Positions 19,071 to 35,715 of a stretch of DNA of 64,000 nt are shown piece after piece. Source of the stretch: a bacterium (GTDB lineage Bacteria > UBA8248). The stretch is taken from positions 1,888,001-1,952,000 of the forward strand of contig CBDBZU010000004.1 in the NCBI GenBank assembly GCA_965213625.1, written 5' to 3'. A program made the translations under genes and the position numbers. Below the pieces are notes generated by a model, which had not been told where the DNA came from, ran no database searches, and worked only from the letters and a program-made list of their open reading frames with translations. Each line of letters starts with the position of its first letter. Position 1 is the first letter of the stretch.

Positions 19071-19937
19071 ATGGTTTACGCTCAGATTCTGATTAACAGC
19101 ATTCTCCTGGGAGGCATATACGCCTGCATCGCAGTCGGCTTCTCGCTCGTCTGGGGCGTAATGAACATCCTCAACATTATGCACGGTACGTTCTTGATGC
19201 TGGGTGGCTACGTTACGTTCTGGATGTTCAAGCTCTACGGGGTGGATCCGTTTTTATCCCTCCCAGTTTCCGCCGTCACCATGTTCTGCGCCGGTTATGT
19301 AGTGCAGCGCGGATTGATCAACAAAATCGTACGCGCGCCCATGTTCATGTCCTTGATTCTCACCTTCGGACTTCAATTGCTCGTCGTGAGGCTGGCGATT
19401 TATTTCTTCACCGGTGATTTTAGGTCGGTTCAGCCCACCTATGCGGGTTTTTCCATTCCCCTCATGGGTCTTTCGATACCGTTCGTTCGAGTTTCCATTT
19501 TTGTGCTGGGCGTCGTTCTCACGAGCATTCTCTTCTGGTTCATGGGGCACACGCGCACGGGCCGGGCCATACGCGCGACGCGGATGGATTTGGACTCCGC
19601 CCAGTTGATGGGCGTCGACATCGGAAGAATCTACGCCATCACGTATGGAATCGGCGCAGCCGCTGCCGCCACGTCGGGGTCCCTGGTGAGCGTGGGTTTC
19701 GCCATTTCGCCGGTGAGTGACGTGGAGTTCCTCTCGAAATCTTTCATCATCTGCACCATCGGAGGTCTCGGAAACATCACGGGTGCGCTTGCGGGGGGGC
19801 TGATCCTGGGACTCGCCGAGAATTTCGGGGCCCTGTATCTCGGCCCCGGGCTGCAAAACGCCATCGGCTACGTGCTCTTGATTCTGGTGCTCTTCATCAA
19901 GCCGTCGGGCCTGCTGGGCAGAAAGGGTTTTGAATAG
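19071..19937 (+). CDS. Branched-chain-amino-acid-type ABC permease (LivH-like)
   Basis: GFSLVWGVMNILNIMHG, TRTGRAIRA, GGLGNITGA. Confidence 0.9.
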   Translation: MVYAQILINSILLGGIYACIAVGFSLVWGVMNILNIMHGTFLMLGGYVTFWMFKLYGVDPFLSLPVSAVTMFCAGYVVQRGLINKIVRAPMFMSLILTFGLQLLVVRLAIYFFTGDFRSVQPTYAGFSIPLMGLSIPFVRVSIFVLGVVLTSILFWFMGHTRTGRAIRATRMDLDSAQLMGVDIGRIYAITYGIGAAAAATSGSLVSVGFAISPVSDVEFLSKSFIICTIGGLGNITGALAGGLILGLAENFGALYLGPGLQNAIGYVLLILVLFIKPSGLLGRKGFE

Positions 19938-19938
19938 C

Positions 19939-20922
19939 ATGTTCAAGCCTTGGGCCCACATTCAATGGTTCAGCATGGGAGCGGGCGTCCTTGCCCTCAT
20001 ACTCTTGCCCTCTTTCGTGGAAAACGACGAGATCCGAAAGTGGATGGACATCCTGATGGTGGCTATTCTGGCGACCAGCTGGAATTTCATCGGCGGCCTG
20101 ACGGGCTACCCCTCTTTCGCGCCGGCGGCCTTTTTCGGGCTGGGTGCGTACACGACGGCCATCCTCATGAACGCAGGTTTCAATTTTTTCATCACGTTGG
20201 GTATCGGCGCCTGTTTGGGCGCGCTCGTGGCGCTCGCCTTGGGCGTTCCCATATTGAGGCTGAGGGGCCACTACTTCGCCATCGCCACCTTCGGCGTAGC
20301 GGAGTTCTTCCGTGAACTGGCGGATAATCTGCGCATCACCGGCGGGGGGGACGGCATCAACCTGCCCCAGATTACGGGCGGGCCGGATTATTTCACGCGC
20401 TTTTTTTACTTCTCCATGCTCGGGGTGGCCGTGCTCGCGGTCTTGACGCAGTATTTCGTCACGCGACACCGCTTGGGCTATGGACTCGTCGCCATACGCG
20501 AGAACGAGGACGCGGCCGCCATGACGGGTGTGGATACGACGAAATACAAGATCATCGCCTTCGTGCTCTCATCCATTTTCCCCGCGATGGGCGGTGGTGT
20601 GTACGCCTACCGCGCCGCGTTTTTGGAGCCAATCGATGTTTTCGACGTCATGTTCTCGATCAAGGCGATTGTGATGTCGATGCTCGGCGGCGTGGGGACG
20701 GTGATGGGCCCGCTCGTAGGCGCGGTGATGATGGAATACTTGTCGGATTACCTCTGGGGGGCGTTCACGGAATTCCACAGCGCATTTTTGGGAATCATTA
20801 TCGTGCTGGTCGTATTGTTCATTCCGCGCGGCCTCATGACCCTCTCCCAGGAAGTGAAGAGCCGAGGATGGGGGTCATTGGGGCTGATTCTCAAGAGCAA
20901 CATACAGAGGTTCAAGGTGTGA
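19939..20922 (+). CDS. ABC permease (LivM-like)
   Basis: SWNFIGGLTGY, LRLRGHYFAIAT, AIRENEDAA. Confidence 0.9.
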   Translation: MFKPWAHIQWFSMGAGVLALILLPSFVENDEIRKWMDILMVAILATSWNFIGGLTGYPSFAPAAFFGLGAYTTAILMNAGFNFFITLGIGACLGALVALALGVPILRLRGHYFAIATFGVAEFFRELADNLRITGGGDGINLPQITGGPDYFTRFFYFSMLGVAVLAVLTQYFVTRHRLGYGLVAIRENEDAAAMTGVDTTKYKIIAFVLSSIFPAMGGGVYAYRAAFLEPIDVFDVMFSIKAIVMSMLGGVGTVMGPLVGAVMMEYLSDYLWGAFTEFHSAFLGIIIVLVVLFIPRGLMTLSQEVKSRGWGSLGLILKSNIQRFKV

Positions 20923-21686
20923 GCCAAACACTATTGGAGGGCAGGGGCGTCACGAAGCGATTCGGCGGACTCACCGCTGTCTCGGCGGTGGATTTCACCG
21001 TGCGCAAGGGGGAGATCCTGGGCGTCATCGGCCCCAACGGCGCGGGGAAGACGACGCTTCTGAATTGCATCACGGGCCTCGACCCGGCGAACGAGGGCGA
21101 AATCCTCTTTCATGGCGAGCGCATCGAAACCATGAAACCCCACTCTATTACGCGTATGGGAGTCGCACGTACGTTTCAGATCGTCCAGCCTTTCGCGGGT
21201 CTCGCGGTGCGCGAGAACGTCGTGATGGGCGCGCTGTTCGGTTCTCAGAAATCAAAGAAAGAGGTGAAGCGCGCCCAGGAACTCGCGGATGAGATGCTGG
21301 CGTTCGTGGGCTTGAGCGACAAGTCAGCGCAACTCGCCTCCCAGCTCACTCTCGCCGAGAGAAAACGCCTGGAATTCGCCAAATCCCTGGCCACGGAACC
21401 GGAAGTGTTGCTGCTTGATGAGGTGAATGCAGGGCTCAACACGACGGAAATCGAAAACGCCATCTCTCTCATCCACAAGGTGAGGGAACAAGGCGTGACC
21501 ATCCTGGTGATCGAGCATTTGATGAAGGTGATTACGGACCTCTCGGACCGCGTCGTCGTTCTGCACCACGGGGAGAAGATAGCGGAAGGTTTGCCGAGTG
21601 AGGTCACGAGCGACGAGCAGGTCATCAAAGCGTATCTGGGCGAGAAGTACGTGGCGATGATGAAAAAACTGGCCGAGGAGTCTTAG
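20919..21686 (+). CDS. ABC ATPase (LivG-like)
   Basis: [23 protein letters not shown]; GTG start overlaps the upstream stop. Confidence 0.9.
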   Translation: MSQTLLEGRGVTKRFGGLTAVSAVDFTVRKGEILGVIGPNGAGKTTLLNCITGLDPANEGEILFHGERIETMKPHSITRMGVARTFQIVQPFAGLAVRENVVMGALFGSQKSKKEVKRAQELADEMLAFVGLSDKSAQLASQLTLAERKRLEFAKSLATEPEVLLLDEVNAGLNTTEIENAISLIHKVREQGVTILVIEHLMKVITDLSDRVVVLHHGEKIAEGLPSEVTSDEQVIKAYLGEKYVAMMKKLAEES

Positions 21687-21691
21687 GCGTG

Positions 21692-22429
21692 ATGACGCAT
21701 GAGTCACTCGGCGGGGAGAGCCTTCTCGAAGTACGCGGCTTGGCGGGTGGGTATGATGTCGTGCAGGTTTTGTGGGGCATCGATTTGAACGTACGCGAAG
21801 GCGAGATTGTCGCCATCGTCGGCAGCAATGGCGTTGGAAAATCCACTTTCCTGCGAATGCTGTCGGGCGTTCTCCCTCATCAGGCGGGAACGATAACGCT
21901 CGGTGGTGAGTCCATCGAGGGAATGGCGCCGGAAGGTGTCGTCGCCAAAGGGATTTCCCATGTGCCCGAGGGCCGCAGGCTCTTCGCCGCGATGAGCGTG
22001 GAGGAGAACCTTTTGATGGGCGCCTACGCCCGGAAAATGGCGGATCAGGAATTGGCGGCGGATTTGGAGAGAGTGTACGGGTTTTTCCCGAGATTGGCGG
22101 AGCGGAAATCCCAGCTTGCGGGGAGCATGTCCGGCGGTGAGCAGCAGATGTGCGCGATTGCCCGGGGATTGATGGCGCGTCCCAGGTTGCTCTTGATCGA
22201 TGAGCTCTCCCTGGGGCTAGCGCCCCGTCTGGTGGAGGAACTGTGTGGATTCGTCCGGCAGATCAACGAGGAAGGCGTCGCCATCATTCTCGTGGAGCAA
22301 GATGTGCTGACCGCGTTCGAACTCGCGAGCCGGGCCTATGTATTCGAAACGGGTCGCGTAACAATCTCCGGCACCTCGGATGAGCTGCTGGCGAATCCCG
22401 AAGTGAAAAAAGCGTATCTGGGCATGTAG
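21692..22429 (+). CDS. ABC ATPase (LivF-like)
   Basis: GSNGVGKS, VPEGRRLF, MSGGEQQM. Confidence 0.9.
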   Translation: MTHESLGGESLLEVRGLAGGYDVVQVLWGIDLNVREGEIVAIVGSNGVGKSTFLRMLSGVLPHQAGTITLGGESIEGMAPEGVVAKGISHVPEGRRLFAAMSVEENLLMGAYARKMADQELAADLERVYGFFPRLAERKSQLAGSMSGGEQQMCAIARGLMARPRLLLIDELSLGLAPRLVEELCGFVRQINEEGVAIILVEQDVLTAFELASRAYVFETGRVTISGTSDELLANPEVKKAYLGM

Positions 22430-22526
22430 CTTGTTTTCATATACTCTGTCTGGAATCAAAATGCATGAAAATAGCGAAGAACTCGAGAACGCAAGAGGTA
22501 GCATTCACTTAATGAGGAGGCGAATC

Positions 22527-23735
22527 ATGAGAAGGCGGAATTTGTTGTTTCTCATCGCAACTGTCTTGTTTGTCACCTTCGGCTTGACGGGCCTACAGGG
22601 TCTAAGCGGCGCCCAGGCGGCGGAGGTCAAGTTCGGCGCTGCATTGCCGCTCACGGGTCCGCTCGCCACCGAGGGGAAAAAGCAGCAGGCGGGTTATGAA
22701 ATCTGGCGCGAGCGCGTGAACAAGGCGGGCGGCATCAACGTAGGCGGCAAGAAGATGAAAGTGAAGATCGTCTACTACGACTACGAGAGCAAGACGCCGA
22801 CGGCCACCAAACTCGCCGAGCGGCTCATCACCAAGGAAAAGGTGGACCTCCTTCTGGGCCCGTTCGGTAGCGGAGCGACGAAATCCGTCGCCGCGATTAC
22901 GGAGCGCTATCAGGTTCCCCTCATCGCGCCCGTGGCGAGTTCCGAGCCGATTTTCGACCAGGGCTATAAATACCTCTTCGGCCTCCTGGCGCCGAATGCG
23001 TATTTACCGAACAACTTCCTTGCGCTCTTGAAAGAGCAAAAGCCGATGCCGAAGACTATAGCGTTCGTGACGCGAAACGACTTCTTCCCGCGCGCCGTCA
23101 CGAGGATGATCAGAAAAGCGGCGAAAAAACAGGGTTTCACGGATGTTTACTACGCCGAGTTCCCGAAAGACTCCAAGGACATGTCCACCTGGCTCACGAT
23201 CGTGAAGGGCAAGAATCCCGACGTGCTCATGGTGGCCGGGTATCTTCCCGACACCCTCCTCGCCACCAAGCAGGCGAACGAGTTGGGAGTGAAACCCAAA
23301 ATTCTGTTCACCATGGTGGGTCCGGTATACGCACAGTTCACGGAATCGCTCAAGGGCGCGGCCAACAACATCCTGACCGCCGCCTGGTGGGGCGAGGCGC
23401 TCGATTACAAGGGCGATTTCATCGGCTCCGCGCGGGATTTCGGGAAAATCTGGCGCGCGAAGTTTAAGCAGGAGCCGGACTACGTCGCCGCGGCGTCGAC
23501 CGCAGCAGGCATCGTCGCCCAGAAGGCCATCGAGGCGGCGGGCACGCTGGATAAGAAGAAGGTTCGCGATGCCATTGCGAACACCAACTTGAAAACTTTC
23601 TTCGGCCCCGTGAAGTTCGACAAGCTCAACATGAACGCGGCCAGCGCCATCGTTTTGTTCCAGGTGCAGGACGGAAAACGCAAGACAGTGGGACCGAAGA
23701 GCGTGGCGAACGCGAAGTTCAGGTATCCGAGATAG
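22527..23735 (+). CDS. ABC substrate-binding protein (LivK-like)
   Basis: Signal peptide, GAALPLTGPLA, VNKAGGINVGG, LLGPFGSG. Confidence 0.88.
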   Translation: MRRRNLLFLIATVLFVTFGLTGLQGLSGAQAAEVKFGAALPLTGPLATEGKKQQAGYEIWRERVNKAGGINVGGKKMKVKIVYYDYESKTPTATKLAERLITKEKVDLLLGPFGSGATKSVAAITERYQVPLIAPVASSEPIFDQGYKYLFGLLAPNAYLPNNFLALLKEQKPMPKTIAFVTRNDFFPRAVTRMIRKAAKKQGFTDVYYAEFPKDSKDMSTWLTIVKGKNPDVLMVAGYLPDTLLATKQANELGVKPKILFTMVGPVYAQFTESLKGAANNILTAAWWGEALDYKGDFIGSARDFGKIWRAKFKQEPDYVAAASTAAGIVAQKAIEAAGTLDKKKVRDAIANTNLKTFFGPVKFDKLNMNAASAIVLFQVQDGKRKTVGPKSVANAKFRYPR

Positions 23736-23814
23736 TTCTATAGTTTTCGGGCCGGATTCAGGAGAGCCGCCCTGGTTGAGGCGGCGCTCCAGGTCTGGTG
23801 TTTTGAGGGTTTTG

Positions 23815-24612
23815 ATGCCGACGATTCACCAGTTGGCCGACAACGAGGTGCCCGAGGCGGCGCGCGATCTCGTAGAACGCGTCAAGACGCGCGAGAAGCG
23901 CGTTTTCGGGGTCGATACGCTCTCGAACATCTGGCGCTCCATGACCCACCATCCCGAATACATGAAGGCGAATTGGGAGCGTTCGCGCGCCACGATGCAG
24001 CGTGGAGACGTGCCGCCTTTGGTAAAGGAGATGGTCGCCTCGTCGGTTTCAATCGTCAATGCGTGTGAATACTGAATCGATTCTCATATCGCCGCGGTCA
24101 TGCGGATGGGGGTCGATGAAGTGGGCATCACGGAGTTGATCGGATTGACGGATCACGTCTCGGGAATGAACAAGGTCGCTTTTGGTTTGTTGTTGGAAGA
24201 TGAGGATACGACACCCCTTTTGCCTTATCCGGATGAACTGGAGATCGCATCTGTCGTTCAGGAGCTGATGCGTGAGGTGGAGGATGTGGAATCGGCGCGA
24301 CTGGGCAGGGATGGCATTCCGCGCTATTGGCGCTGTCTGGCGCGGAACCGGCATTATTTCGAATCGACGTGGAACAAGCACAAGCTCATGCTCGATGGAG
24401 GCGTTCTCGAAAAGCAGGCCAAAGCGGCCGTGGGTTATGGCGTAAGCGCCACGAACGGGTCCAGGTATTTTATACGGTATTTTCATTCTTATCTGGTGAA
24501 TCTGGGCTGGGACCCGGGGAGAATTCTCGAAATTCTCGGCGTAGTGGACCACTACAACAGTTTCAACGCCCTGGCGACGGGAATGCAGATTGAATCTGAC
24601 ATCAGACCGTGA
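23815..24612 (+). CDS. AhpD/CMD-family probable selenoprotein (CxxU; UGA at 24073-24075 read as Sec)
   Basis: Two ORF-track pieces lie in one frame; read-through gives VNACEY-U-IDSH, matching the AhpD N-x-C-x-Y-C-x-x-x-H motif; hairpin directly after the UGA. Confidence 0.82.
24076..24117 (+). promoter_or_regulatory. Putative bacterial SECIS element
   Basis: ATCGATTCTCAT/ATGGGGGTCGAT 12-bp lower stem (with G-U pairs), ATCG bulge, CCGC/GCGG upper stem, loop GGTCAT. Confidence 0.72.
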
Positions 24613-24686
24613 ATTCTGAGGACTTCTGGCGCGCGCCGGGTGAGCGTGGCTTCTGACGAAGAGAAATTATTAGGGTAGGGCAGGAA

Positions 24687-25541
24687 ATGGAATTTTTACG
24701 CGCTGCATCGGTAGAAGAGGCGCTAGCGGCTGCGCGGGATGGGGCCGCTTTCGTGGCGGGCGGAACGAACCTCGTGCCGGACGTGCTCTTTAGACGCAAG
24801 AAAATAGCGCGCGCGGTAGACATCAGCCGTCTCGATGAGCTTCGCTTCATTGAGGAAGCCGACGGAAAAATCAGAATCGGTGCGCTGGCGACGGTCACGG
24901 ATTTGCTGGATTCTGACTTGATACGCGCCGCCGCCTCGCCTTTGTATGAGAGCGCTCTGGAGTTCGCGGGGCCTTTAGTCAGAAACCGCGCGAGCGTGGC
25001 GGGCAACCTCATGGATGCCTCGCCCGCCGCCGATTTGGCTCCACCGCTTCTGGCGCAGGATGCCGTCATCGAATTGGCTTCAGTGGAGGGCGAGCGCGCC
25101 CTGTCGCTTTCGGAATTTTTTCTGGATTACCGAAAAACAGCTGTACGTCCGGAAGAACTCATGACGGCCATCGTCATCGAGCCGCTGGGGCCAGAGGATC
25201 GTTTCGCATATTACAAACTCCAGCTCAGGCGCGCGATGGCCATCGCCGTCGTGGGTGTGGCGGTCGCTCTCCGGATGAATGGAAGCGTTTGCACGGAGGC
25301 CGCCATCGGTCTGGGGGCAGTAGCCGCGATTCCGTACCGCGCACTCTCCGCCGAGGAACTTCTGCGGGGCAAGGAAATCGGAGAAACGGAAATCGAGGCG
25401 GCGGCAGCCGCCGCGGCGGATAGCGCGCAGCCGATTGACGATGTACGGGCGAGTGCGGCGTACCGCAGGAAAATGTGTGGGGTATTGGTCCGCCGCTTGT
25501 TGAAAAAAGCGCTGGGAATGCCGCAAACCGTGGTCGTGTGA
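24687..25541 (+). CDS. XDH/CoxM-family FAD-binding subunit
   Basis: VAGGTNL, IGALAT, VRNRASVAGNL, PIDDVRASAAYR. Confidence 0.92.
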   Translation: MEFLRAASVEEALAAARDGAAFVAGGTNLVPDVLFRRKKIARAVDISRLDELRFIEEADGKIRIGALATVTDLLDSDLIRAAASPLYESALEFAGPLVRNRASVAGNLMDASPAADLAPPLLAQDAVIELASVEGERALSLSEFFLDYRKTAVRPEELMTAIVIEPLGPEDRFAYYKLQLRRAMAIAVVGVAVALRMNGSVCTEAAIGLGAVAAIPYRALSAEELLRGKEIGETEIEAAAAAAADSAQPIDDVRASAAYRRKMCGVLVRRLLKKALGMPQTVVV

Positions 25542-25571
25542 TGAGAAATATATTTTTTGCTTGAGAAGACG

Positions 25572-26054
25572 ATGAAAACATATGAAATAAAATTGCGCGT
25601 GAACGGGAAGGACGAAGCCCTCGAGGTGCGGGGGGATGAGACGCTCCTGCGCGCGCTCAGGCGAATTGGCTATGTCGAGGTGAAACTCAGTTGCGAGGGC
25701 GGCGATTGCGGTGCGTGCGCCATTTTGCTCGATGGCGTGGCGGTGAACGCCTGCCTCATGTTCGCGGCGCAGGCGGATGGCTCCGAAGTCACCACCGTGC
25801 GCGGTATCGGAACGGAAGACGATCTCCATCCGGTACAGGAGCAACTCATCGAAAAAGGAGGCGTGCAGTGCGGTTTCTGCACACCGGGGATAGTCGTATC
25901 GGCGAAGACGCTTCTGGATGAGAACCCCGCGCCCACGCGTGAGGATATACAACGCGGCCTCGCCGGAAATCTTTGCCGTTGCACGGGTTACAAGAAAATT
26001 TTCGAGGCGGTATCGGCCGCCGCCCGGCAGATGAACCAGGGAGGCGACTCATGA
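25572..26054 (+). CDS. XDH/CoxS-family [2Fe-2S] subunit
   Basis: CEGGDCGAC, QCGFCTPG, NLCRCTGY. Confidence 0.94.
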   Translation: MKTYEIKLRVNGKDEALEVRGDETLLRALRRIGYVEVKLSCEGGDCGACAILLDGVAVNACLMFAAQADGSEVTTVRGIGTEDDLHPVQEQLIEKGGVQCGFCTPGIVVSAKTLLDENPAPTREDIQRGLAGNLCRCTGYKKIFEAVSAAARQMNQGGDS

Positions 26055-28333
26055 ACACGCGCGTCGTCGGCCAACCTCATCCCATCATCGATGCCGTGGA
26101 GAAAGTTTCCGGCGCCACGATTTACATCAATGATCTGGAGCTTCCGGGCGCGCTCACAGGCATGGCGCTCAGGAGCCCTCATCCGCACGCCAAGATATTG
26201 AACCTTGACACCTCGGATGCGGAGCGCTTGCCGGGCGTCGCCGTCGTTCTGTCGAAAAACAACACGCCGGACGCTCCATTCGGCATCAATCACAAGGATG
26301 AAGCCGCATTTTGCCGCGAAAAAGTGCGCTATGTGGGGGACGAAGTCGCCGCCGTGGCGGCCGTGGACGAGGAAACGGCCCGTGAGGCGCTCTCGCTCAT
26401 CCGCGTCGAATATGAGGTTCTGCCCACGGTTGCCGATCCTTTCACGGCGCAGGAGCCGGATGCGCCTCTCGTCCATGATTCCGTCGCCGGAAATATCGCG
26501 AACGAGTTTCACATCAAGCGCGGTGAGATAGACGAGGCGTTTCATGCGGCGGACGCCACGTTTGCGGATGAATTTCACACGCATCTCGCGCACCAGGCCT
26601 ATATCGAGCCCACGGGTTGCGCAGCGCAGTGGCACCCGGACGGAAAAATATCCGTCTGGGGCTGTCTGCAGTCGGTGTTTTTGATTCGCACCTTCATGCT
26701 GGGGCCCGCCATGGGCATGTCCCCCGATGATTTTCGCGTGACGCAGACCAAGCCGGGCGGCGCCTTCGGCGGCAAGCTGGACGTGAAAGCGGCCCTCATG
26801 GCGGCGATGCTGAGCCGAGCGGCGGAAAAGCCGGTCAAATTCATGATGAGCCTGGAAGAAGACTTGATCGCCATGCGCCCGAGGATGCCGGTGCACATAT
26901 CCCTGGAATCCGCCTGGAAGCGCGACGGCGCGCTTGCCGGCAAGCGCGTCAAGATTGTGGCGGAAAACGGCGCTTACAGCTCTCTCTCGCCGGCCATTAT
27001 GAGTTCCATCGCCCTCAGGACGGATAATCTCTACAAAACGCCCGCCGCCGAAATTCAGGGCAAACTCGTCTACACGAACATCATCCCTTCGGGCCAGATG
27101 CGGGGGTTCGGCAACGTGCAGGCGACCTACGCCTGGGAGAGCCACCTCGACAACGTGGCCGATGGACTGGGCCTGGACCCGGCCGATCTTCGCCTCAAGA
27201 ACTACACCGAAAAGGGCGACGTCTCGCTCCACGGCTGGAATATAGCCAGTTGCGCCGTGGCGGACGCCACCAGGCACGTGGTGAAGGAGATGGACTGGAA
27301 AGCCAAGCGCGCCCGGGGAGGCAAGGGTCGCGGCGTGGGTCTCGCCAGCTGCATCCATGTTTCGGGCAACAAGGGGTTTTCCGTGGAACTGGGGCCGGAC
27401 GGCACCGACCCCTCAAGCGCCGTGCTCAGGGTGGATGAGGAGGGCAAGGTCGAAATATGGTCGGGCGAGTCGGACCTGGGCCAGGGCGCCACGAGCGTGA
27501 TGGCCTATATCGCCTCCGAGGTCATGGGTATTCCGGTCGAGCGGTTCAAGGTGCCTCCCACGGATACGGGCTATATGCCTTTCGGCATGGGGGCGTTCGC
27601 CAGCCGCATCACCCTGATTGGCGGCAACGCCGTCAAAATCGCCGCCGAAGACACCCGCAGAAACCTTCTGGACGCGGCGGCGGAAATCATGGAAATCCCT
27701 GCGGAAGAACTCGAAATAATCGAGGGAGAAGTCCGGGCGAAGGCCCTGCCTGAGCGGAAGATGGCGGTGGGCGAGGTCGTCAGCCGGGTGGGCAGCATCA
27801 TCGAGGGTGAGGGCAAGTGGCTGGCCGGGGGAGACGTGCTCGACAAGGATAAATACGGGAATCCCTCGACGACGTATTCTTTCAGCACCCACGGCGCCGA
27901 GGTGGAAGTCGACATGGAGACGGGAATCGTCACCGTTTTGCAGATTTGCTGCGGTCACGACCCCGGCCGGGTGATCAACAGGCTGGGCGCGGAGGGCCAG
28001 GTCGAGGGCGGCGCGGTGCAGGGCATGAGCTTCGCGATGATGGAAGGCCTGGCGCCGCAGGAGGGGCATCTGCGCGGCAGGAATTTCCACGACTACCTCA
28101 TCGCCACCTCGATGGACGCCCCGCCGATTGAGAACGATTTCTTCGAGTCGATGGACCCCTACGGCCCTTATGGCGCCAAGGGGCTGGCCGAGGTGGCGAT
28201 AAACCCGATCACGGCGGCGATTTGCAACGCCGTCTATCACGCGACGGGCGGCGCGCGAATCCGCACCCTGCCCGTCAGCCCCGAACGCGTACTCGAGGCG
28301 ATCGAAGAAGCCAGGATACAAAATCCCTCTTGA
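26051..28333 (+). CDS. XDH-family molybdopterin-binding subunit
   Basis: GGAFGGK, MRGFG, GQVEGGAVQG, GAKGLAE. Confidence 0.93.
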   Translation: MNTRVVGQPHPIIDAVEKVSGATIYINDLELPGALTGMALRSPHPHAKILNLDTSDAERLPGVAVVLSKNNTPDAPFGINHKDEAAFCREKVRYVGDEVAAVAAVDEETAREALSLIRVEYEVLPTVADPFTAQEPDAPLVHDSVAGNIANEFHIKRGEIDEAFHAADATFADEFHTHLAHQAYIEPTGCAAQWHPDGKISVWGCLQSVFLIRTFMLGPAMGMSPDDFRVTQTKPGGAFGGKLDVKAALMAAMLSRAAEKPVKFMMSLEEDLIAMRPRMPVHISLESAWKRDGALAGKRVKIVAENGAYSSLSPAIMSSIALRTDNLYKTPAAEIQGKLVYTNIIPSGQMRGFGNVQATYAWESHLDNVADGLGLDPADLRLKNYTEKGDVSLHGWNIASCAVADATRHVVKEMDWKAKRARGGKGRGVGLASCIHVSGNKGFSVELGPDGTDPSSAVLRVDEEGKVEIWSGESDLGQGATSVMAYIASEVMGIPVERFKVPPTDTGYMPFGMGAFASRITLIGGNAVKIAAEDTRRNLLDAAAEIMEIPAEELEIIEGEVRAKALPERKMAVGEVVSRVGSIIEGEGKWLAGGDVLDKDKYGNPSTTYSFSTHGAEVEVDMETGIVTVLQICCGHDPGRVINRLGAEGQVEGGAVQGMSFAMMEGLAPQEGHLRGRNFHDYLIATSMDAPPIENDFFESMDPYGPYGAKGLAEVAINPITAAICNAVYHATGGARIRTLPVSPERVLEAIEEARIQNPS

Positions 28334-28370: not shown

Positions 28371-30008
28371 ATGGAAAACCTCTCCTGCGACGTAGTGATT
28401 CTGGGCGGCGGCCCCGCCGCGATGACGGCCGCCATCGCCGCCATGGAAAGCGGTGCGGAAGCACTTCTGGTCTGCAAGCAATCCCCCGGGAATTCAGGCA
28501 ACATCGTCATGGCCCGGGCGGGGCATTCGGCGAATTTCGCGCCCGATGACAGCGCGGCCCTCTTCCTCGAAGACACCCTGGAGGGCGGCGATCACCTGAA
28601 TCATCCGGATGTCGCCGAAGCCATGTGCGCGGATTCCGCCGCGCGGATTCGCGATCTCTACGACTGGGGCATCCCCTTCATCACGCGCGAGGACGGCTCG
28701 TTCGACTTGCACCCCCAGGGCGGCCACAGGCGCGACCGCGGACTCTACCCGGTCAGGAACTGGGGCGTGGAGGTGGCGAGGCCGCTGCGCAAAAAGCTCG
28801 ATGCGGACGGCGCGCGCATTCTCGAACACGTCATGGCGGTCGATTTGCTCGTGGATGATGGGGTCTGCCGGGGGGTAATCGGCTTCGACACGAGAACCGG
28901 CCGGATTTACGCCATCCACGCCCCCGCCACCATACTGGCCACGGGCGGGGCGGGGCAGATATACGCCGAGAACACGAACGCGGGCGGCATCACGGGAGAC
29001 GCCTTCGGCATGGCGCTCAGGGCCGGTCTCGCGCTCTCGGACATGGAATTCGTCCAGTTCTACCCGGCCGTCATCAAGCGGCCAGAGAGCAACATGGTCG
29101 TGGCGCCCACGCTGTTCCCGCTCGGCGCGCGCTTTTTGAACCGGGACGGCGAGGACATCATGCGCGACGTGCCCGGCGGCGGCGCAACGCGGGATTTGAT
29201 GGCCCGTGCGGTCTATCTCGAACTCATGGGGGGCGGCGGGGTGGATGGCGCCGTGCAGATGGACCTCTCAGGCATCCCGATGGCCGATCTCGAGCATTTC
29301 GCCCCCGACAACTTGAAACTCTTCGCCAGGCGCGGCGTGTCGGCCCACAGCAGCGAGATATACGTCGCACCGAAGGCCCATTTCTTCATGGGCGGCGTGC
29401 CGATAGACGGCGCGGGCGCAACGGCCATGCCGGGCTTGTATGCGGCGGGGGAGGCCGGCGCGGGCGCGCACGGGGCGAACCGCCTCTCGAACAACGCCTT
29501 TACCGAGGCCCACACGCTGGGCTGGCGCGCGGCCAAAGCCGCTGCGGAATATGCGCGCAGGGTGAACGGGACGGCGTTAAACCAGGCGCTCGCGCGCAGC
29601 CACGCCGATGCCTTAACGGCGCGCGCGGGGAGGCCCGCCCGCGCGGTGGAGCTCATCCGCGATATCAAGCGCGTCTGCTGGGAGAACGCCGGCATCGTGC
29701 GCGAGGGGACCCTGCTCGAAGAGGCGCGGGGCGAGCTCGGCCGTATCGGGCAAGGTCTTACGGCCTGCGGGGGGAGCGAACCCGCCCGTCTCGTGGAGGC
29801 CGTGGAAGCCGAGAACATGTGCCTGAGCGCGCGGGCGGTGGTGGAGGCCGCCCTCATGCGGACCGAGAGCCGGGGCGCGCACTACCGGACCGATTATCCC
29901 GATCCCGACGACGCGCGGTGGCGGGTGAACGTTTTCGTGAAAAAAGAGGAAAACGCATTTTCGGCCCGCTCCCTTCCCGTCGGCTCGATTGCGTGGCAAA
30001 ATAAGTAA
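28371..30008 (+). CDS. SdhA/FrdA/NadB-family flavoprotein
   Basis: LGGGPA, LATGGAG, DMEFVQFYP, HFFMGG, HGANRL, RTESRGAHYR. Confidence 0.88.
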   Translation: MENLSCDVVILGGGPAAMTAAIAAMESGAEALLVCKQSPGNSGNIVMARAGHSANFAPDDSAALFLEDTLEGGDHLNHPDVAEAMCADSAARIRDLYDWGIPFITREDGSFDLHPQGGHRRDRGLYPVRNWGVEVARPLRKKLDADGARILEHVMAVDLLVDDGVCRGVIGFDTRTGRIYAIHAPATILATGGAGQIYAENTNAGGITGDAFGMALRAGLALSDMEFVQFYPAVIKRPESNMVVAPTLFPLGARFLNRDGEDIMRDVPGGGATRDLMARAVYLELMGGGGVDGAVQMDLSGIPMADLEHFAPDNLKLFARRGVSAHSSEIYVAPKAHFFMGGVPIDGAGATAMPGLYAAGEAGAGAHGANRLSNNAFTEAHTLGWRAAKAAAEYARRVNGTALNQALARSHADALTARAGRPARAVELIRDIKRVCWENAGIVREGTLLEEARGELGRIGQGLTACGGSEPARLVEAVEAENMCLSARAVVEAALMRTESRGAHYRTDYPDPDDARWRVNVFVKKEENAFSARSLPVGSIAWQNK

Positions 30009-30484: not shown

Positions 30485-30991
30485 TTACGAATCCTGCCCG
30501 GCGGGGGGCGCGGCGGTGCGCCGGATGAGTTCCCCGAGCGCCTCGCGCTGGTCTCCGAGCACGGCCATGTTTTCGCGGTGCTGTTCGCTTTGCACCACGC
30601 GCTGAGCGGTAAGTTCCTCCATGGCTTCCCGGTGCCGTTCTTTCTCGGCCTCGCGCTCGGCGGCCAGCGCCGCCATGTTCTCGTGGTGCCTGCGCTCCAT
30701 CGCCTCCATGGATTCACGGTGCCGGCCGGCAATCCCTTCCATGGCTTCACGGTGGCGGGTGTCGAGCGCCTTCATGGTTTCGCGGTGCTGGGCGTCACGG
30801 TAGCGCGCGGCCTGGCGCATGAAGTAGAGGCCGTACGCAATCAGGGCGCACTGCGTGGCCCCGACGAGCGCGGCGACCCACACGGAGGCCTGCTGCGCCG
30901 CGAGGGAGGCATGCTGGATGGCCAGGGCGGCTTCCTGCAGTTTGAGGGCGGATTCTTGCAGTGCGAGGGTCGCGGTTTGGAATTCCGTCAT
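30485..30991 (-). CDS. Hypothetical single-TM coiled-coil protein with RHRExM repeats
   Basis: Start MTEFQT after GGAG; one hydrophobic helix; roughly 11-aa repeats. Confidence 0.6.
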   Translation of the reverse strand: MTEFQTATLALQESALKLQEAALAIQHASLAAQQASVWVAALVGATQCALIAYGLYFMRQAARYRDAQHRETMKALDTRHREAMEGIAGRHRESMEAMERRHHENMAALAAEREAEKERHREAMEELTAQRVVQSEQHRENMAVLGDQREALGELIRRTAAPPAGQDS

Positions 30992-31201
30992 TCGTTTTTC
31001 TCCCACCTGGGTTGAGTGGGTCCTCAGCGTGTTCCGCAAGAGTAGCGAACCGCCGCGCGCCGCGTCAATGTCTGGCCCGGGCGGGGGTGGAGAGCGATTA
31101 CGGTTTTGTAGCGGACAGGCCCCTGCGCCTGTCCGGGGCCTCCGTGCCTGTCCGCTTTCTATTGAGCCGGAATGACGAACAATATCCCACCGCATCTTGT
31201 T

Positions 31202-31229
31202 GTAGGGACAGGTCGCGACCTGTCCCTAC
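31202..31229. repeat. GTAG-type REP palindrome
   Basis: Perfect palindrome GTAGGGACAGGTCGCGACCTGTCCCTAC. Confidence 0.75.
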
Positions 31230-31320
31230 GGGATCATCATGTCGCCGACCGGGGGAAACAAGGTCTTTATCAACAACCCAGAGGAGCGAGCGTTTGCCGG
31301 TTTTTCCAACGAACGAGAGA

Positions 31321-31628
31321 GCAATTCACTCCCCCCTTGGGAGTTCTTGCGAACCGAGTAGAGAAGCAATTCACTCCCCCCTTGAGGGGGAGTCACAGAG
31401 GCCGAGTCCTCTGGACGAAGGCCGATGTGGTGGGGGGTATAACGCGTTTATTGCCATTCCGAATAATACCCCCCACCGAATCGCTTGCGGGCTTTCGCCC
31501 ACAGCTCTTCGACTCCCCCTCAAGGGGGGAGTGAATTTCGACTCTATTTGTTCGGCAATAGCCCTCAAGGGGGGAGTTGATTCTTCACGCTGCTTTTACG
31601 GCAATACCCCTCAAGAAGGGAGTGAATC
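31321..31628. repeat. Cluster of CCCCTTGAGGGG-type REP/MITE-like repeats
   Basis: AATTCACTCCCCCCTTGAGGGGGAGTC (~31369) is inverted against GACTCCCCCTCAAGGGGGGAGTGAATT (~31511); partial copies flank it. Confidence 0.7.
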
Positions 31629-31690
31629 TCTTCTCTACTCTTCGGGGTTGATTCGCAAGAAGGCCCGGAGCCGTCCTGCGCCGCCATCGA

Positions 31691-34048
31691 CTACCTGCGC
31701 GCGCCGAAGGCGCCCACGTAGCTGCGGGTGACGGCGTCGTCGCCTTCCCCCACTGTGCCGGTCACGCCGAAGGTGCCGGCGACGGCCGCGGGGGCCGTAT
31801 TGGCAGGTCCTTCCACCACGTCTTCGGTTGCCGCATCGTCCGTCGCCGGGCCGTAGAACCGGCCGCTCCAGGTGCCGTTGTAGGGGTACGCCACGGTGTC
31901 ATCGTCCCGGATCACGCCGGCGCCCATCCGGGCGTTGCCGGAGAAGTCACCCGCATCCGTGATGTCGGCTTCCCTCAGGCTGATGGTGTCACCCGTGGCC
32001 ACGCCGCCTGCGTAGATGCTGGTGATCGAGCCCTGAATGGTGCCTACTTCATCGTCGGCGGCATTTTCATCATCAGCCGTTCCAGGTGCGCCGAAGTTAG
32101 CGGTAAGCGAAGCATCGCCCTCGAAGTAATCTACGCTGCTTCCTGCTGTGTACACGCCTGTAGCTTTACCATTGTAAGTCGCCGTTCCGGTGAGCGTGAC
32201 ATAGTCAGCGAAACTTGCTATCGGCTCACCACCGTCGGCGAAGGCTGCGACACCGGGCGAGTCACCATCGTTGAGCCAGACGCCGAAGGCGAGATAGTCG
32301 CTATCCGGAACCGGACCAGTTGCCGCAGTCAACTCAAAATCATCTTCAGTCACATTCACCACATATTTCACCAGCCTCGTCAGCTCCCCGTCTTCAATCT
32401 CGAATTGGCAGTCGGTTGGTGTGGTCGAGCCGCATACGAACTCCGCCGGAACGGGATTCGTATCCTCATCGCCGTCATGGTCGTAGGCGGCGCCTGTCAG
32501 ATCGGTTGCGCCGTCCGCCAGAACAACCTCAGATTTGGATACGGGCTTGTTGCTTATGGTCAAATCGATGGTTACAGCATCTTTTGCGGCTACCGTCTGC
32601 TCGATATCGGTGAAGACAATAGCGTGATTGGAACCATCCGAGATGGAATACCCGTGCATGAAGCCGGACACGCCATCGATCCGGGTGGCCGTCTGCGGCA
32701 TGGCCGAGATATTGTTGCCCGGGTCCGCCTCCACGGCCGTCGTCCTGAAGGTCAGCGCAACACCGGTGCTTGGGGTAACGATGATTTCAAATGCGCCGGC
32801 CGCGAATTCCACAGGCGGGTCCGCCTGCGTGTCAGGCTCCCAGGAGGCCGTCGCCGTGGCGCCGCCGGAACCACCGGTTGTGGTGCTGTCGTTGTCGGCG
32901 TCCGCAGGCGTGCCCGCCGCCGCGCCGATCGCCGCCGCAACGGCCATCACGCGGACAGCCCGGGCGCCTTCATCCGTCGATTCGTCTATGTCCTCGGTAT
33001 CTGGATTATCATCTGCATCTATCGCGGCTTCCACGTCGACGGCGTTCGCCGCCTTGAGCAATCCGAGCACGTGCGCAGCCACCGGGGTCCGGGGGGGCGG
33101 CATGGGGGTAACCGGAGCAGCAACGCCGGTATTTAGTCCGATTCCCATGCCGTTCAGGTTCAACAGGTAGGTCACGAGCGTTTCGTAATGCTCCTTGGCC
33201 TCATCCCGGGCGTCTCGCGCGTCCTCCGCCATCGTGGCGTTCTTCGCTTTGCGGGCCGCAGCTGCCGCGTCGGCCGCCGCTTTCCGTATGATGGGGAGCG
33301 CGGCTTCCGCACGTTTCAGTACCGCTTCCGCCTTTTTCGCTTCTTCCTCCGCCTGCGCGTAATCCAGCCTCGCGGCCTTGGCCCTGTCCGCAGCGTTTCG
33401 CGCCTCTTCGGCTTCCTCGCGGATCAATGCAATCCTGAGGGCCGCCCCGTGTCCGTTTTCTATGACGCTGCCGTCCCTGGGATCGATAATCCTTGTGAAA
33501 CCGTTCGCCAGGGCTCGCGCAGCGAGGTCTTTGTACATATCGGCCGCCTCCTGCGCGGACGCCAGGCTCGTCGCTCCGCCGTACTTGATGACTTCATCCC
33601 GCGCGGCCTCGGCATCTTCCCGGGCTTCTACCGCCATGTCCTTGTATTTCGTGGCGTCATTCAGCGTATCCGCGTCTTGCGCCTTGTCGGCCGCCTCCTG
33701 CGCATTCTCGTACGCGGTCTTGGCCCTGCCCAGCTCAGCCGTGGCCAGGGCGAAATGGATGGGGGCGGCGTCCCGGTCGCCGGCGGCGTTGCTCAGAGTC
33801 TCCTTCGCGGTTTCCAGCGCGGCATTGGCCAGCTTGGCCGCCTCATTGGCGTCGTCTTTCGCATCCATGATCATCTGGGCGATTTCCGCCTCCGTCGGTC
33901 CCGTCATGGGCGGGTCCACCGGATCCGCAGCACCGTCGTCGCCGCCGACTCCGCCGCCTCCGCCGCCGCAGCCCGCCAGCGTCAGCGCGAACACCGCCGC
34001 CAGCGCGAAAGCGGAGAACCTGCTTATGGATTTCGCTCTGAACATCAT
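31691..34048 (-). CDS. Surface lipoprotein paralogue 1 (TbpB-like C-terminal barrel, putative Slam/T11SS cargo)
   Basis: Lipobox LAGC, poly-Gly tether, Ala-rich helical stalk, YLAFGVWL, GTATYNGKATG, ends VGAFGARR. Confidence 0.75.
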   Translation of the reverse strand: MMFRAKSISRFSAFALAAVFALTLAGCGGGGGGVGGDDGAADPVDPPMTGPTEAEIAQMIMDAKDDANEAAKLANAALETAKETLSNAAGDRDAAPIHFALATAELGRAKTAYENAQEAADKAQDADTLNDATKYKDMAVEAREDAEAARDEVIKYGGATSLASAQEAADMYKDLAARALANGFTRIIDPRDGSVIENGHGAALRIALIREEAEEARNAADRAKAARLDYAQAEEEAKKAEAVLKRAEAALPIIRKAAADAAAAARKAKNATMAEDARDARDEAKEHYETLVTYLLNLNGMGIGLNTGVAAPVTPMPPPRTPVAAHVLGLLKAANAVDVEAAIDADDNPDTEDIDESTDEGARAVRVMAVAAAIGAAAGTPADADNDSTTTGGSGGATATASWEPDTQADPPVEFAAGAFEIIVTPSTGVALTFRTTAVEADPGNNISAMPQTATRIDGVSGFMHGYSISDGSNHAIVFTDIEQTVAAKDAVTIDLTISNKPVSKSEVVLADGATDLTGAAYDHDGDEDTNPVPAEFVCGSTTPTDCQFEIEDGELTRLVKYVVNVTEDDFELTAATGPVPDSDYLAFGVWLNDGDSPGVAAFADGGEPIASFADYVTLTGTATYNGKATGVYTAGSSVDYFEGDASLTANFGAPGTADDENAADDEVGTIQGSITSIYAGGVATGDTISLREADITDAGDFSGNARMGAGVIRDDDTVAYPYNGTWSGRFYGPATDDAATEDVVEGPANTAPAAVAGTFGVTGTVGEGDDAVTRSYVGAFGARR

Positions 34049-34288
34049 GAAGTGGGTCCTCCTGAATACGATAGAAAAAGGGATTTTCCGTTTCTTCCCG
34101 GCTTTTTAGGTGGAGGACTCTTTTGAAATAGCGTTGAATTCTTGTATCTATTTGATATTTATTTTGTTACAATTGTTTCATGATGGCGTGGATTCTGTGT
34201 ATCAAGGCCCGTAATCAAAACGAAAGCAGGTTCGTTAAAACGCCTGCGTATCTAGGGGTGCGCCTGTCGCGGGAGGTGCCTGTTGCTT

Positions 34289-34441
34289 GAAGCCGTTCCC
34301 GGGGAAAACCCGACGTACGGAATTTAAGGGGGGGCGGCTGGAAACGTGGCTCAAGGCGGAACTGTGACCCCACCCTGCAACCGAAAGGGCAGGGCTGGAA
34401 ACCCTCCGCCTGAAGGTGCGCGCGCCAGTGCTCTACCCGAC
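34289..34441 (+). mobile_element. Group II intron 3' fragment (domains V-VI), no RT ORF
   Basis: DV-like GAAGCCGTTCCCGGGGAAAACCCGACGTACGG with AGC triad and AC bulge; long DVI ending CTCTACCCGAC. Confidence 0.78.
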
Positions 34442-34442
34442 A

Positions 34443-34548
34443 GAAGGCCAGCCACCACCTCCATCCCGAGTCATGGGCCGCTACCCGCGAGGGTGGGTGG
34501 CTAGCGTTGACAGGGGCGCGTGCGTGCGGGGCTATTGAACACCGAAAA
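34443..34548 (+). mobile_element. Probable group II intron domain I fragment
   Basis: CCCGAGTCATG...CGCGAG...AGCGTTGACAGGGG...GCTATTGA resembles bacterial group II intron 5' regions. Confidence 0.5.
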
Positions 34549-34689
34549 TGAATCATCATTTATCAACATTGGGGCTTTGCGCAGCGGATTGATCTGGTTA
34601 GCGGTAAATGGAGCAGATACGATGTAGGGGTGGCAGACAATTCTAACATTATAATTGAACATTAACATTAGATATGGTAGTGTTCGGGA

Positions 34690-35715
34690 ATGATGTTAGA
34701 TAGCTGTCATATCCCTTCAGACAGGGGCGAATATCGCGACCGGCTCGAAGCCTATCTCGAAGCCATTCTAAAGCGCGACGTTCCTTTGAAAGACTGGGGC
34801 GGGTATGAGGCGCTGCCTGTATTTCTGACCCGTTTCTACCAGTTTTTTGAGACGCGGATCGGTCAAACACCACTCCTCTTCATGTCGGCGAGCCAAGCCG
34901 CCGAACATACGCCAGCAGAGCTCAGGAAACACCTTGAGTTGGCGAAGGAGGGATTCGACGGAATAGTCGTATATTCAGTTGAACGACTTACAGCCGCCTT
35001 CCGCGCTCGGCTTATTGCAGCCGGCGTCGCTTTCGCCGTGCCCGGAAATCAGCTTTTTATTCCGGAACTCGCGATGGACTTGCGCGAACATTTCAGGGCG
35101 CCGAAACCGGAGCGGCCTGAAAAATTATCTCCGTCGGCTCAACTGGTTCTGTTTTTCCATCTCATCAAAGATGAGCAGGCTCGACCTTGGACGCCAACCG
35201 AGCTGACGGAACCACTTCGGTATTCGATCATGACCATGAGCCGGGCTTTTGATGAGCTTGCAGCTGTGGGCCTTGCCCGGATAGAGCGGCGTGGCCGCAG
35301 GAAGCTCTTGTCGTTCTGTTCCGAGGGGCGCTTGCTGATCGACGCTTCGAAGACACTTCTGATTCGTCCTGAACGCCGACTGGACCATGTCCGTTGGTTG
35401 AAGAGACCGCCTGGATTTCCGTTGGCCGGCGAGCACGCCCTCGCACGATTCAGCGATCTCAGCCCACCGGCCGCGCCACCGGTTTACGCAGTGACGCCGA
35501 AACAGATATGCGACCTGCTCGCGGCCGGGTGGGCGGAACAGAGAGAGGCTGACTATGACTCTGATGGTGCGCTTGCAATTTGGCGATACGATCCCGGGAT
35601 ATTGGCTCGGAACCAGATAGTCGATCCGCTCTCTCTCTTCGCGCAATTCTGGGACGACCCCGACGAACGCTTGTCCATGGCCGTCGACCAACTCCTGGAG
35701 CAATGGACATGGTGA
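34690..35715 (+). CDS. HTH-containing AbiEi-like antitoxin/regulator (start uncertain)
   Basis: Central HTH (PTELTEPLRYSIMTMSRAFDEL), LAGEHALARFSDL, VDPLSL; overlaps a nucleotidyltransferase gene. Confidence 0.6.
   Translation: MMLDSCHIPSDRGEYRDRLEAYLEAILKRDVPLKDWGGYEALPVFLTRFYQFFETRIGQTPLLFMSASQAAEHTPAELRKHLELAKEGFDGIVVYSVERLTAAFRARLIAAGVAFAVPGNQLFIPELAMDLREHFRAPKPERPEKLSPSAQLVLFFHLIKDEQARPWTPTELTEPLRYSIMTMSRAFDELAAVGLARIERRGRRKLLSFCSEGRLLIDASKTLLIRPERRLDHVRWLKRPPGFPLAGEHALARFSDLSPPAAPPVYAVTPKQICDLLAAGWAEQREADYDSDGALAIWRYDPGILARNQIVDPLSLFAQFWDDPDERLSMAVDQLLEQWTW

Follow-up and report, generated by a model that had tools for sequence, protein, structure and literature searches.

A 64,000-nucleotide stretch of a bacterial genome (GTDB lineage Bacteria; UBA8248; assembly GCA_965213625.1, contig CBDBZU010000004.1, positions 1,888,001 to 1,952,000), referred to here as the window, carries a gene at 23815-24612 on the forward strand whose product is almost certainly a selenoprotein. 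There are very strong grounds for considering this region as one gene with an AhpD/CMD (carboxymuconolactone decarboxylase) fold, in which a UGA codon would be decoded as selenocysteine (Sec, U) at the second position of the CxxC redox motif. The gene was proposed in an earlier reading of the window that was made without database searches and is called the sequence-only reading below.

The in-frame UGA and the hairpin that follows it

Two open reading frames (ORFs) of the forward strand, 23776-24075 and 24100-24612, start 324 bases apart and are therefore in a common frame, with the TGA at 24073-24075 as the only stop between them. Translation of 23815-24609 with TGA as U yields 265 residues, in which the single in-frame TGA is codon 87 (N-A-C-E-Y-U-I-D-S-H; motif C84-E-Y-U87-I-D-S-H91). 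The complete gene is considered to run from the ATG at 23815 through 265 codons, with the Sec codon at position 87, to a terminal TGA at 24610-24612. A ribosome-binding-site-like purine run, GAGGG (23805-23809), was read by eye on the same strand 5 nucleotides (nt) before the ATG. The sequence-only reading had described one frame split by this TGA and a 265-residue product, and the coordinates and translation bear out both claims.

The argument for reading 24073-24075 as selenocysteine (U87) draws on the conservation of a TGA/Cys column and on selection to either side of it. In public species-representative genomes, the homologous codon is TGA in all 22 loci located (44-93% identity), which share the motif C-x-Y-TGA-[IMV]-D-S-H; tblastn matched query residues 1-265 in 20 of these loci and at least residues 13-265 in the other 2. 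Use of a narrower Sec-form alignment (A4, 7 rows) as the query of the locus search added two loci, both with TGA, and a second clade at approximately 40% identity has TGA at codon 87 in all five of its loci. Over the three sets, the same column is TGA in 29 of 29 loci, down to approximately 40% identity. A phylum-wide search of whole genomes gave matches in 31 of 51 genomes and 5 of 15 genera, and TGA was present in each of the 37 matches, five of which are the second clade.

The Cys counterparts are more distant. A search of 1.84 billion representatives recovered full-length homologues of 247-267 residues at 21-32% identity, and the nine full-length distant homologues that were aligned have Cys at both motif positions (9/9). 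When the nearest Cys form, P0127, was used to search for loci, no relative was found. The sequence-only reading had proposed that homologues be aligned for Cys/TGA pairing at this column; judged by the alignments, the Sec/Cys pairing at column 87 is the classical pattern. Ratios of nonsynonymous to synonymous change (dN/dS; Nei-Gojobori against the window sequence, 15 comparisons with unsaturated synonymous sites) were 0.09-0.32 for codons 1-86 and 0.08-0.34 for codons 102-265. Such values point to purifying selection on both flanks of the UGA, and the selection downstream argues that translation goes on past it. Codons 88-95, which lie between the UGA and an ATG at 24100 that begins 24 nt after it, are conserved as protein.

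The UGA is followed directly by a hairpin at 24076-24117 of the same strand that resembles a bacterial selenocysteine insertion sequence (SECIS), with a 12-bp lower stem, a 4-nt bulge, a 4-5-bp upper stem of G+C pairs, and a small G-containing apical loop (GGUC). Folding of 24073-24125 produced a hairpin with a bulge and a stem that coincides with 24076-24117; its energy was -20.9 kcal/mol, compared to a mean of -14.41 kcal/mol for 200 shuffles (standard deviation 2.41, z = -2.69); three of the 200 shuffles were as stable. The apical loop, which begins 21 nt after the UGA, is GUCA, or GGUCAU when the closing G-U pair is open. A bulged hairpin with a G-starting loop had been noted at this location in the sequence-only reading, and folding agrees with it. 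In the available text of a marine selenoprotein survey, a bacterial SECIS is a stem-loop located immediately downstream of the UGA whose small apical loop contains G (PMC1088965), and the 24076-24117 hairpin has both features.

The hairpin was compared across 23 sequences, one of which supplied the structure itself. Pairing was kept in 90.4% of cells (22 distinct sequences) vs. 29-51% for controls in which the pairing partners were slid. Normalised synonymous-codon entropy was 0.37 over codons 88-101 and 0.55 elsewhere (Mann-Whitney p 0.013), and when synonymous variation was scored in 247 sliding windows of 14 codons, the eight with the lowest values all overlapped the hairpin. Among the 23 sequences, Ala93 is GCC and Arg97 is CGG in all, while Ala94 (GCG) and Val95 (GTC) are invariant in 22. 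The clade at approximately 40% identity retains the upper stem with two loop bases changed.

Contigs from libraries recorded as RNA were also inspected. Thirteen such runs held at most one tenth of the sampled words in any one run, and four were compared. Their contigs are 90-97% identical to the window, so they come from relatives. Their coverage takes in the gene of the importer binding protein and the beginning of the selenoprotein gene; one contig of 837 nt (run X16) extends 51 nt beyond the UGA. Since these contigs may be DNA and cannot show translation, they were given no weight, and a gap in their coverage at 24260-25620 is uninformative.

Fold, active site and selenium machinery

The CMD domain (Pfam PF02627) was identified over residues 47-122, across the UGA, with an E-value of 3.1e-15 and 56.3 bits (cut-off 23). 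Of the NCBIfam models, the generic ahpD_dom (TIGR00778) passed with 38 bits (cut-off 27.8). The score for TIGR01926 (AhpD-like 1/YciW peroxidase-related) was 34 bits vs. a cut-off of 81.8, and the gene is therefore not AhpD-like 1. True AhpD (TIGR00777, 22.7 vs. 191.95), the AhpD-related (seleno)protein NF041238 (24.1 vs. 175), and TIGR04169 all remained under their cut-offs. As the sequence-only reading had claimed, the UGA coincides with the second Cys of the AhpD CxxC motif: U87 aligns to the second Cys of C-S-Y-C-A-H-S-H in PDB 2ouw (E 2.4e-13) and to the CxxC of 2oyo and 2prr, as well as to that of the Cys homologues.

The protein may be considered in terms of two repeats. The first CMD/AhpD repeat contains the CxxU motif (residues ~11-130, 23845-24204, forward strand; PF02627 and TIGR00778), and the second (residues ~143-262, 24241-24600, same strand) is a degenerate CMD-like repeat that lacks a redox motif, as indicated by an internal BLASTP comparison, the structural model, and the match to 2q0t. 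In the BLASTP comparison, residues 11-130 and 143-262 are 24% identical over 120 residues (E 1e-16), and C-E-Y-U-I-D-S-H of the first repeat pairs with G-S-R-Y-F-I-R-Y of the second. Two CMD-like repeats, the second of which had lost its motif, were anticipated in the sequence-only reading, and the internal comparison confirms them.

An AlphaFold2 model calculated from 23 aligned sequences presented one compact fold (pLDDT = 94.5, pTM = 0.92) of 12 helices, arranged as two sets of six, with the helix at 85-97 crossing the UGA position. The best PDB match over the full length was 2q0t (Foldseek TM-score 0.66-0.72), followed by AhpD-core proteins, the D. radiodurans alkyl hydroperoxide reductase, Bmp8, and M. 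tuberculosis AhpD; a Foldseek probability of 1.00 was assigned to 2q0t, 2prr, 2oyo, 6k40, 2ouw, 1knc, and others. The predicted structure is an all-helical AhpD-core fold in tandem repeat.

The active-site stretch (24028-24087, forward strand) holds E72, C84, Y86, U87, and H91, which match the AhpD proton relay at all five of its positions. In the portion of the source available, this relay is Glu118/Cys130/His132/Cys133/His137 in the M. tuberculosis protein and Glu36/Cys48/Tyr50/Cys51/His55 in PA0269 (PMC3141380), and the spacing of the five residues here is identical to both. In an alignment of 23 Sec and Cys forms (A3), C84 and column 87 are invariant with E72, Y86, and H91 nearly so; no variation occurs at any of the five in the Sec-form alignment A4 (7 rows).

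A search of the genome (4.15 Mb in 4 contigs) identified SelA (505 bits), a SelB wing domain within a 652-residue frame approximately 2.3 kb downstream of selA, SelD (333.5 bits, contig C4:1518879), and a 96-nt tRNA-SeC with the anticodon tca. The selD gene has its own in-frame TGA within G-G-U-G-S-K and a hairpin following it. The sequence-only reading had named selA, selB, selC, and selD as the genes to look for, and would have taken the TGA for a nonsense mutation or sequencing error should the genome lack Sec machinery and no homologue carry a TGA at this site; all four genes are present, and the machinery and the TGA homologues were both found.

The gene is not alone of its kind in this genome. 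One in-frame TGA is present in 10 of 22 CMD-domain matches, and in 9 of these 10, the gene in the window among them, it takes the form C-x-x-TGA. A short G+C stem topped by GGUC occurs 21-22 nt after the UGA in five of the other TGA-bearing CMD genes. These other genes are all on contig C4, at 465532, 373192, 718702, 1265434, 1487915, 1594773, 1819940, 2711840, and 3156998. AhpD/CMD selenoproteins are greatly expanded within this one genome. A YqeB gene (370.7 bits, cut-off 220; C4:2486067-2486849, reverse strand) and two YqeC genes above the NCBIfam cut-off (C4:2482653-2483312, reverse strand, and C4:599591-600235, forward strand) were found as well, with YqeB and the first YqeC approximately 570 kb, and the second YqeC approximately 1.3 Mb, from the selenoprotein locus. 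The second YqeC lies approximately 6 kb from another Mo-cofactor subunit (C4:606630), and the genome has 10 large subunits of the xanthine dehydrogenase (XDH) family in total. YqeB and YqeC together with SelD are described as the marker of a selenium-cofactor trait in the available text of a review (PMC9312934). The trait so marked is that of selenium-dependent molybdenum hydroxylases. BSepDB, as far as its description is accessible, places metagenome-assembled genomes labelled Nitrospinota among the most selenoprotein-rich bacteria, at 48-54 such genes per genome (PMC13326102), and the heavy selenium investment of the present genome, seen in its 10 TGA-bearing CMD matches, Sec-containing SelD, and YqeB/YqeC genes, agrees with that ranking.

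With the machinery in place, the other ways of accounting for the TGA at 24073-24075 may be considered together. It could mark a broken CMD gene, whether through a nonsense mutation or through faulty sequencing or assembly, and public gene calls are indeed fragmentary: among the 120 matches listed, query coverage is at most 67% in all, and three of these proteins that were aligned start at residue 88 or 96. Breakage is nevertheless practically dismissed by the presence of the same TGA in all 29 of the independently assembled loci and all 37 of the matches, which span five genera, by purifying selection on both sides of the codon, and by the Sec machinery. A true stop separating two small proteins, one of 86 residues and another of 170 residues from the ATG at 24100, might explain why that ATG follows so closely and why many database entries have 170 residues. 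This division is highly improbable given that the CMD domain (47-122) and model helix 85-97 span the UGA, that the Cys homologues are continuous chains of 247-267 residues, and that codons 88-95 are conserved as protein ahead of the second start. A gene caller also placed one homologue's start directly after the UGA, which indicates that starts of the ATG 24100 type are gene-calling artefacts. The truncated public entries fit the selenoprotein reading: of 150 representatives listed in the search, at least 21 start at query residues 93-96, and the last aligned query residue is exactly 86 in 8. Lastly, the UGA could be read through as Cys, Trp, or Gly. UGA has been reassigned in some bacteria, and scarcity of selenium can lead SelB systems to insert Cys in error; however, the genome has a dedicated tRNA-Sec with SelA, SelB, and SelD, column 87 is the redox Cys in homologues, and the C-x-x-TGA arrangement recurs in its CMD genes. 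The terminal stop is TGA in 20 of 22 homologous loci as well as in the gene itself, and TGA is thus a normal stop here. Readthrough to one of these residues is accordingly given very little credence.

Gene neighbourhood

The genes to either side of the selenoprotein gene were assigned with Pfam, and all are on the forward strand. Directly upstream is a Liv-type ATP-binding cassette (ABC) importer (19071-23735) of two permeases, two ATPases, and a Peripla_BP_6 binding protein (22431-23735). Directly downstream, where the sequence-only reading had already placed an XDH-family molybdenum hydroxylase, Pfam recovers a three-subunit enzyme of this family (24687-28333) with a flavin adenine dinucleotide (FAD) subunit (24687-25541), a 2Fe-2S subunit (25557-26054), and a Mo-cofactor subunit (25973-28333). 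The forward-strand run ends with a fumarate-reductase-like flavoprotein of the FAD_binding_2 / Succ_DH_flav_C families (28371-30008), whose NCBIfam scores were under the cut-offs. Two CoA-transferase subunits, an M20 hydrolase, a luciferase-like monooxygenase, and two pyridoxal phosphate enzymes also belong to the run. No AhpC gene adjoins the selenoprotein gene in the window. On the opposite strand, 31691-34048 is an ATG-started ORF of 785 residues that matched no Pfam family at E 1e-5, and the same is true of several ORFs within 30485-36476; they may encode unknown proteins, or be shadow ORFs that arise from the high G+C content of the region.

This company is retained among relatives in three gene orders. 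The 18 close loci (at least 78% identity) have the order of the window, with the Liv-type importer upstream and the Mo subunit downstream in all 18, and the FAD and 2Fe-2S subunits also present in 17. In the five middle loci (55-59% identity), the Mo subunit is directly upstream in three and a PhzF-like gene is directly downstream in four (L027, L030, L049, and L050). The clade at approximately 40% identity, which belongs to a sister family, has the importer upstream in 5/5 loci, and in 4/5 the order is permease, ATPase, ATPase, lone Mo subunit, binding protein, and selenoprotein, followed by unrelated genes. The lone Mo-cofactor subunits of this clade (L057:3092-5479, L060:2150-4468, L058:9198-11528 on the reverse strand, and L059:8285-10612 on the reverse strand) are flanked by the ATPases on one side and the binding protein on the other, and none adjoins a FAD or 2Fe-2S gene. 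An Acidimicrobiaceae locus (L029, 44% identity) has a Liv-type importer upstream, and no Mo subunit was found at it. Counting the window with the 29 loci, a Mo large subunit lies within approximately 4 kb in 26 of 30 places, although these 26 are kin and not independent events.

Other genes were seen beside individual homologues. A gene of the MOSC-domain family (the C-terminal domain of Mo-cofactor sulfurase) lies on the opposite strand at L026:150-797, and L049 has a flavoprotein similar to that at 28371-30008. Isochorismatase-like, UbiD-like, NMT1-like, and luciferase-like genes are near the homologues of the 55-59% loci; together with the PhzF-like gene, these neighbours suggest heteroaromatic catabolism.

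A quick tree of the Mo subunits (Shimodaira-Hasegawa-like approximate likelihood ratio test, SH-aLRT, only; midpoint root) clustered those adjoining the gene in the close and middle loci with a support of 98, apart from the nine other paralogues of the genome. The recurrence of the Mo subunit in three gene orders supports a functional link, and a tie between the selenoprotein and the importer/Mo-hydroxylase unit is moderately supported, being somewhat favoured over its absence; the neighbourhood gives no information on mechanism. The sequence-only reading had suggested a coupled redox or sulfur/selenium-handling role from the position of the gene before the hydroxylase. The link to the hydroxylase is supported only in the form of a conserved neighbourhood, while sulfur or selenium handling has gained no direct support and is not supported by the present data.

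Proposed role and relation to known families

The likely route of decoding would begin with SelB and Sec-tRNA(Sec) binding the 24076-24117 hairpin, whereupon the ribosome would decode the UGA at 24073-24075 as selenocysteine. In the protein, U87 would replace the second Cys of the AhpD motif, C84-x-x-U87-x-x-x-H91, and E72 and Y86 would complete the relay. AhpD-type redox chemistry is probable for the product. The U87 selenolate may attack an oxidised partner, be it a peroxide, a protein sulfenate, or a disulfide; C84 would then resolve the adduct to an internal selenenylsulfide, and a dithiol reductant would restore the enzyme. The second repeat, having lost its motif, presumably has a structural function. 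The selenoprotein would most likely serve the importer/Mo-hydroxylase catabolic unit, whether by scavenging peroxides or disulfides or by helping in its redox reactions.

Several observations weigh against this account. At the level of the family, only the generic ahpD_dom model passes and all family-specific NCBIfam models fall short. For the hairpin, covariation was no better than chance (two double-changed pairs, a number reached by 101 of 500 shuffles), and the synonymous-site test, which is independent of pairing, was therefore used instead; the hairpin also overlies the codons of a conserved peptide, A-A-V-M-R, which itself restricts variation. An Rfam scan of 23700-24700 at E-values up to 10 found no SECIS family and only a chance snoRNA match. 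The loci are kin, so that their counts overstate independence. With respect to the neighbourhood, the XDH-family hydroxylase reached no NCBIfam equivalog cut-off, the best being 4-hydroxybenzoyl-CoA reductase alpha (559.5 vs. 994.55), and the Mo subunit is absent from the neighbourhood in 4 of 29 loci (L026, L027, L029, and L061). In the quick tree, the Mo subunits of the ~40% clade also fall outside the group formed by the close and middle loci, and the pairing of the gene with a Mo subunit is therefore not simply one of co-inheritance.

Two other roles have to be compared with that of a scavenger or helper. The selenoprotein could instead be dedicated to the Mo hydroxylase as its partner in redox reactions or in sulfur/selenium handling, exchanging electrons with the Mo subunit or serving the Mo=S/Se ligand. 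The ~40% clade, with its lone Mo subunit in one run with the importer and selenoprotein, the MOSC-domain gene in L026, and the YqeB, two YqeC, and SelD genes that mark a selenium-cofactor trait in the accessible text of PMC9312934 all lean toward such a partnership. It is unlikely, however, since YqeB and YqeC are far from the locus, with the second YqeC near a different Mo subunit, since the neighbouring hydroxylase is far under the cut-offs of the selenium-dependent equivalogs (343.7 vs. 830.45 for TIGR03311 and 255.8 vs. 1101.9 for TIGR03313), and since none of the nine other TGA-bearing CMD genes is within 10 kb of a Mo subunit. In its strongest form, the tandem-CMD selenoprotein would be the obligate third component of an unrecognised catabolic unit with the Liv-type importer and the XDH-family Mo subunit, its C84/U87 selenenylsulfide exchanging electrons with the Mo enzyme or servicing the Mo=S/Se ligand. 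This form is likewise doubtful; if true, it would matter most where the Mo subunit has no FAD or 2Fe-2S partner genes in the operon, and it would be the first defined job for the widespread CMD-like selenoproteins.

The imported small molecule could also be the substrate of the protein, which would then be a decarboxylase, comparable to true carboxymuconolactone decarboxylase, or a reductive dehalogenase of the Bmp8 type. Bmp8 acts as a reductive debrominase. In line with an enzyme of this type, the best structural match (2q0t) is annotated as a putative gamma-carboxymuconolactone decarboxylase subunit, the CMD-fold debrominase Bmp8 (6ohj, 6ohi) is among the structural matches, and the catabolic clusters include PhzF-like, isochorismatase-like, and luciferase-like enzymes. 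The likeness to Bmp8 is, however, no greater than that to other AhpD-core structures (query-normalised TM-score 0.53, 11-12% identity), and Bmp8 was not recovered by sequence. Since all five AhpD relay positions are kept, thiol/selenol redox is favoured over plain decarboxylation, and direct action on the substrate is judged improbable. A peroxide or disulfide scavenger, or redox helper, of the catabolic unit would remain the preferred role.

Selenoproteins of this general kind are in print. In the available texts, a 2005 survey of the Sargasso Sea introduces two new CXXU selenoprotein families, an "AhpD-like protein" (27 sequences) and a "CMD domain-containing protein" (4 sequences; PMC1088965), and a 2008 survey of the Global Ocean Sampling (GOS) data distinguishes AhpD-like 1 (COG2128, 299 genes) from AhpD-like 2 (pfam02627, 70 genes), both CxxU (PMC2398784). 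Reviews of 2022 and 2026 list, in their accessible parts, a "CMD-like protein, PF02627, CxxU" (PMC9312934, PMC13188914), and CMD-like and AhpD-like proteins are counted among the commonest marine selenoproteins with no assigned function (PMC2398784, PMC13188914). The statement of the sequence-only reading that AhpD-like selenoproteins exist is thus correct as far as these texts go, and their earlier publication makes the find less new than that reading implied.

The published CMD-like / AhpD-like 2 proteins of Zhang, Gladyshev, and co-workers are the closest in description: in the text available, they share PF02627, a Sec second in CxxC, a marine origin, and an open function with the present protein. 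The likeness is by description only, and the tandem 265-residue form is not established in those portions of the publications. In a limited collection of literature, no link between CMD-like selenoproteins and an XDH-family enzyme or an ABC importer was found; a search combining CMD, selenocysteine, and xanthine dehydrogenase gave only a general review. AhpD-like 1 (COG2128/YciW, TIGR01926), from which the gene was set apart above, shares the superfamily and the CxxU motif. M. tuberculosis AhpD and PA0269 share the all-helical fold and, in the portion of the source at hand, the relay E-x11-C-x-[HY]-C/U-x3-H. These proteins use Cys and have a single functional unit in a chain of 145-177 residues, whereas the present protein has Sec and a tandem arrangement with a dead second repeat; in addition, M. 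tuberculosis AhpD works with AhpC and lipoamide, and here no AhpC gene is adjacent.

The 2q0t protein of Burkholderia xenovorans (249-258 residues) has the same two-repeat architecture over 265-272 aligned columns, but it is only 15-16% identical, is a structural-genomics entry with a putative function, and is not a selenoprotein. The sestrins (Pfam PA26) gave a weak match (E 0.007, residues 21-102, 15.8 vs. a cut-off of 29.4 bits). Sestrin 2 is built of two AhpD-like halves with the redox Cys only in the first. Since sestrins are eukaryotic, much larger, and Cys-using, the resemblance is in design only.

Taken with the published families, the find does not overturn current knowledge. The selenoprotein belongs to an already known kind and is unusual only in that the genes of a Mo hydroxylase and an importer are conserved as its neighbours. 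Since every public protein entry of the family that was inspected is a fragment cut at the UGA, annotations of genomes from these sponge-associated and marine lineages miss a full-length redox enzyme. For a family of selenoproteins that is widespread and has no assigned function, the recurrence of importer, Mo hydroxylase, and selenoprotein in three gene orders is a concrete handle on function.

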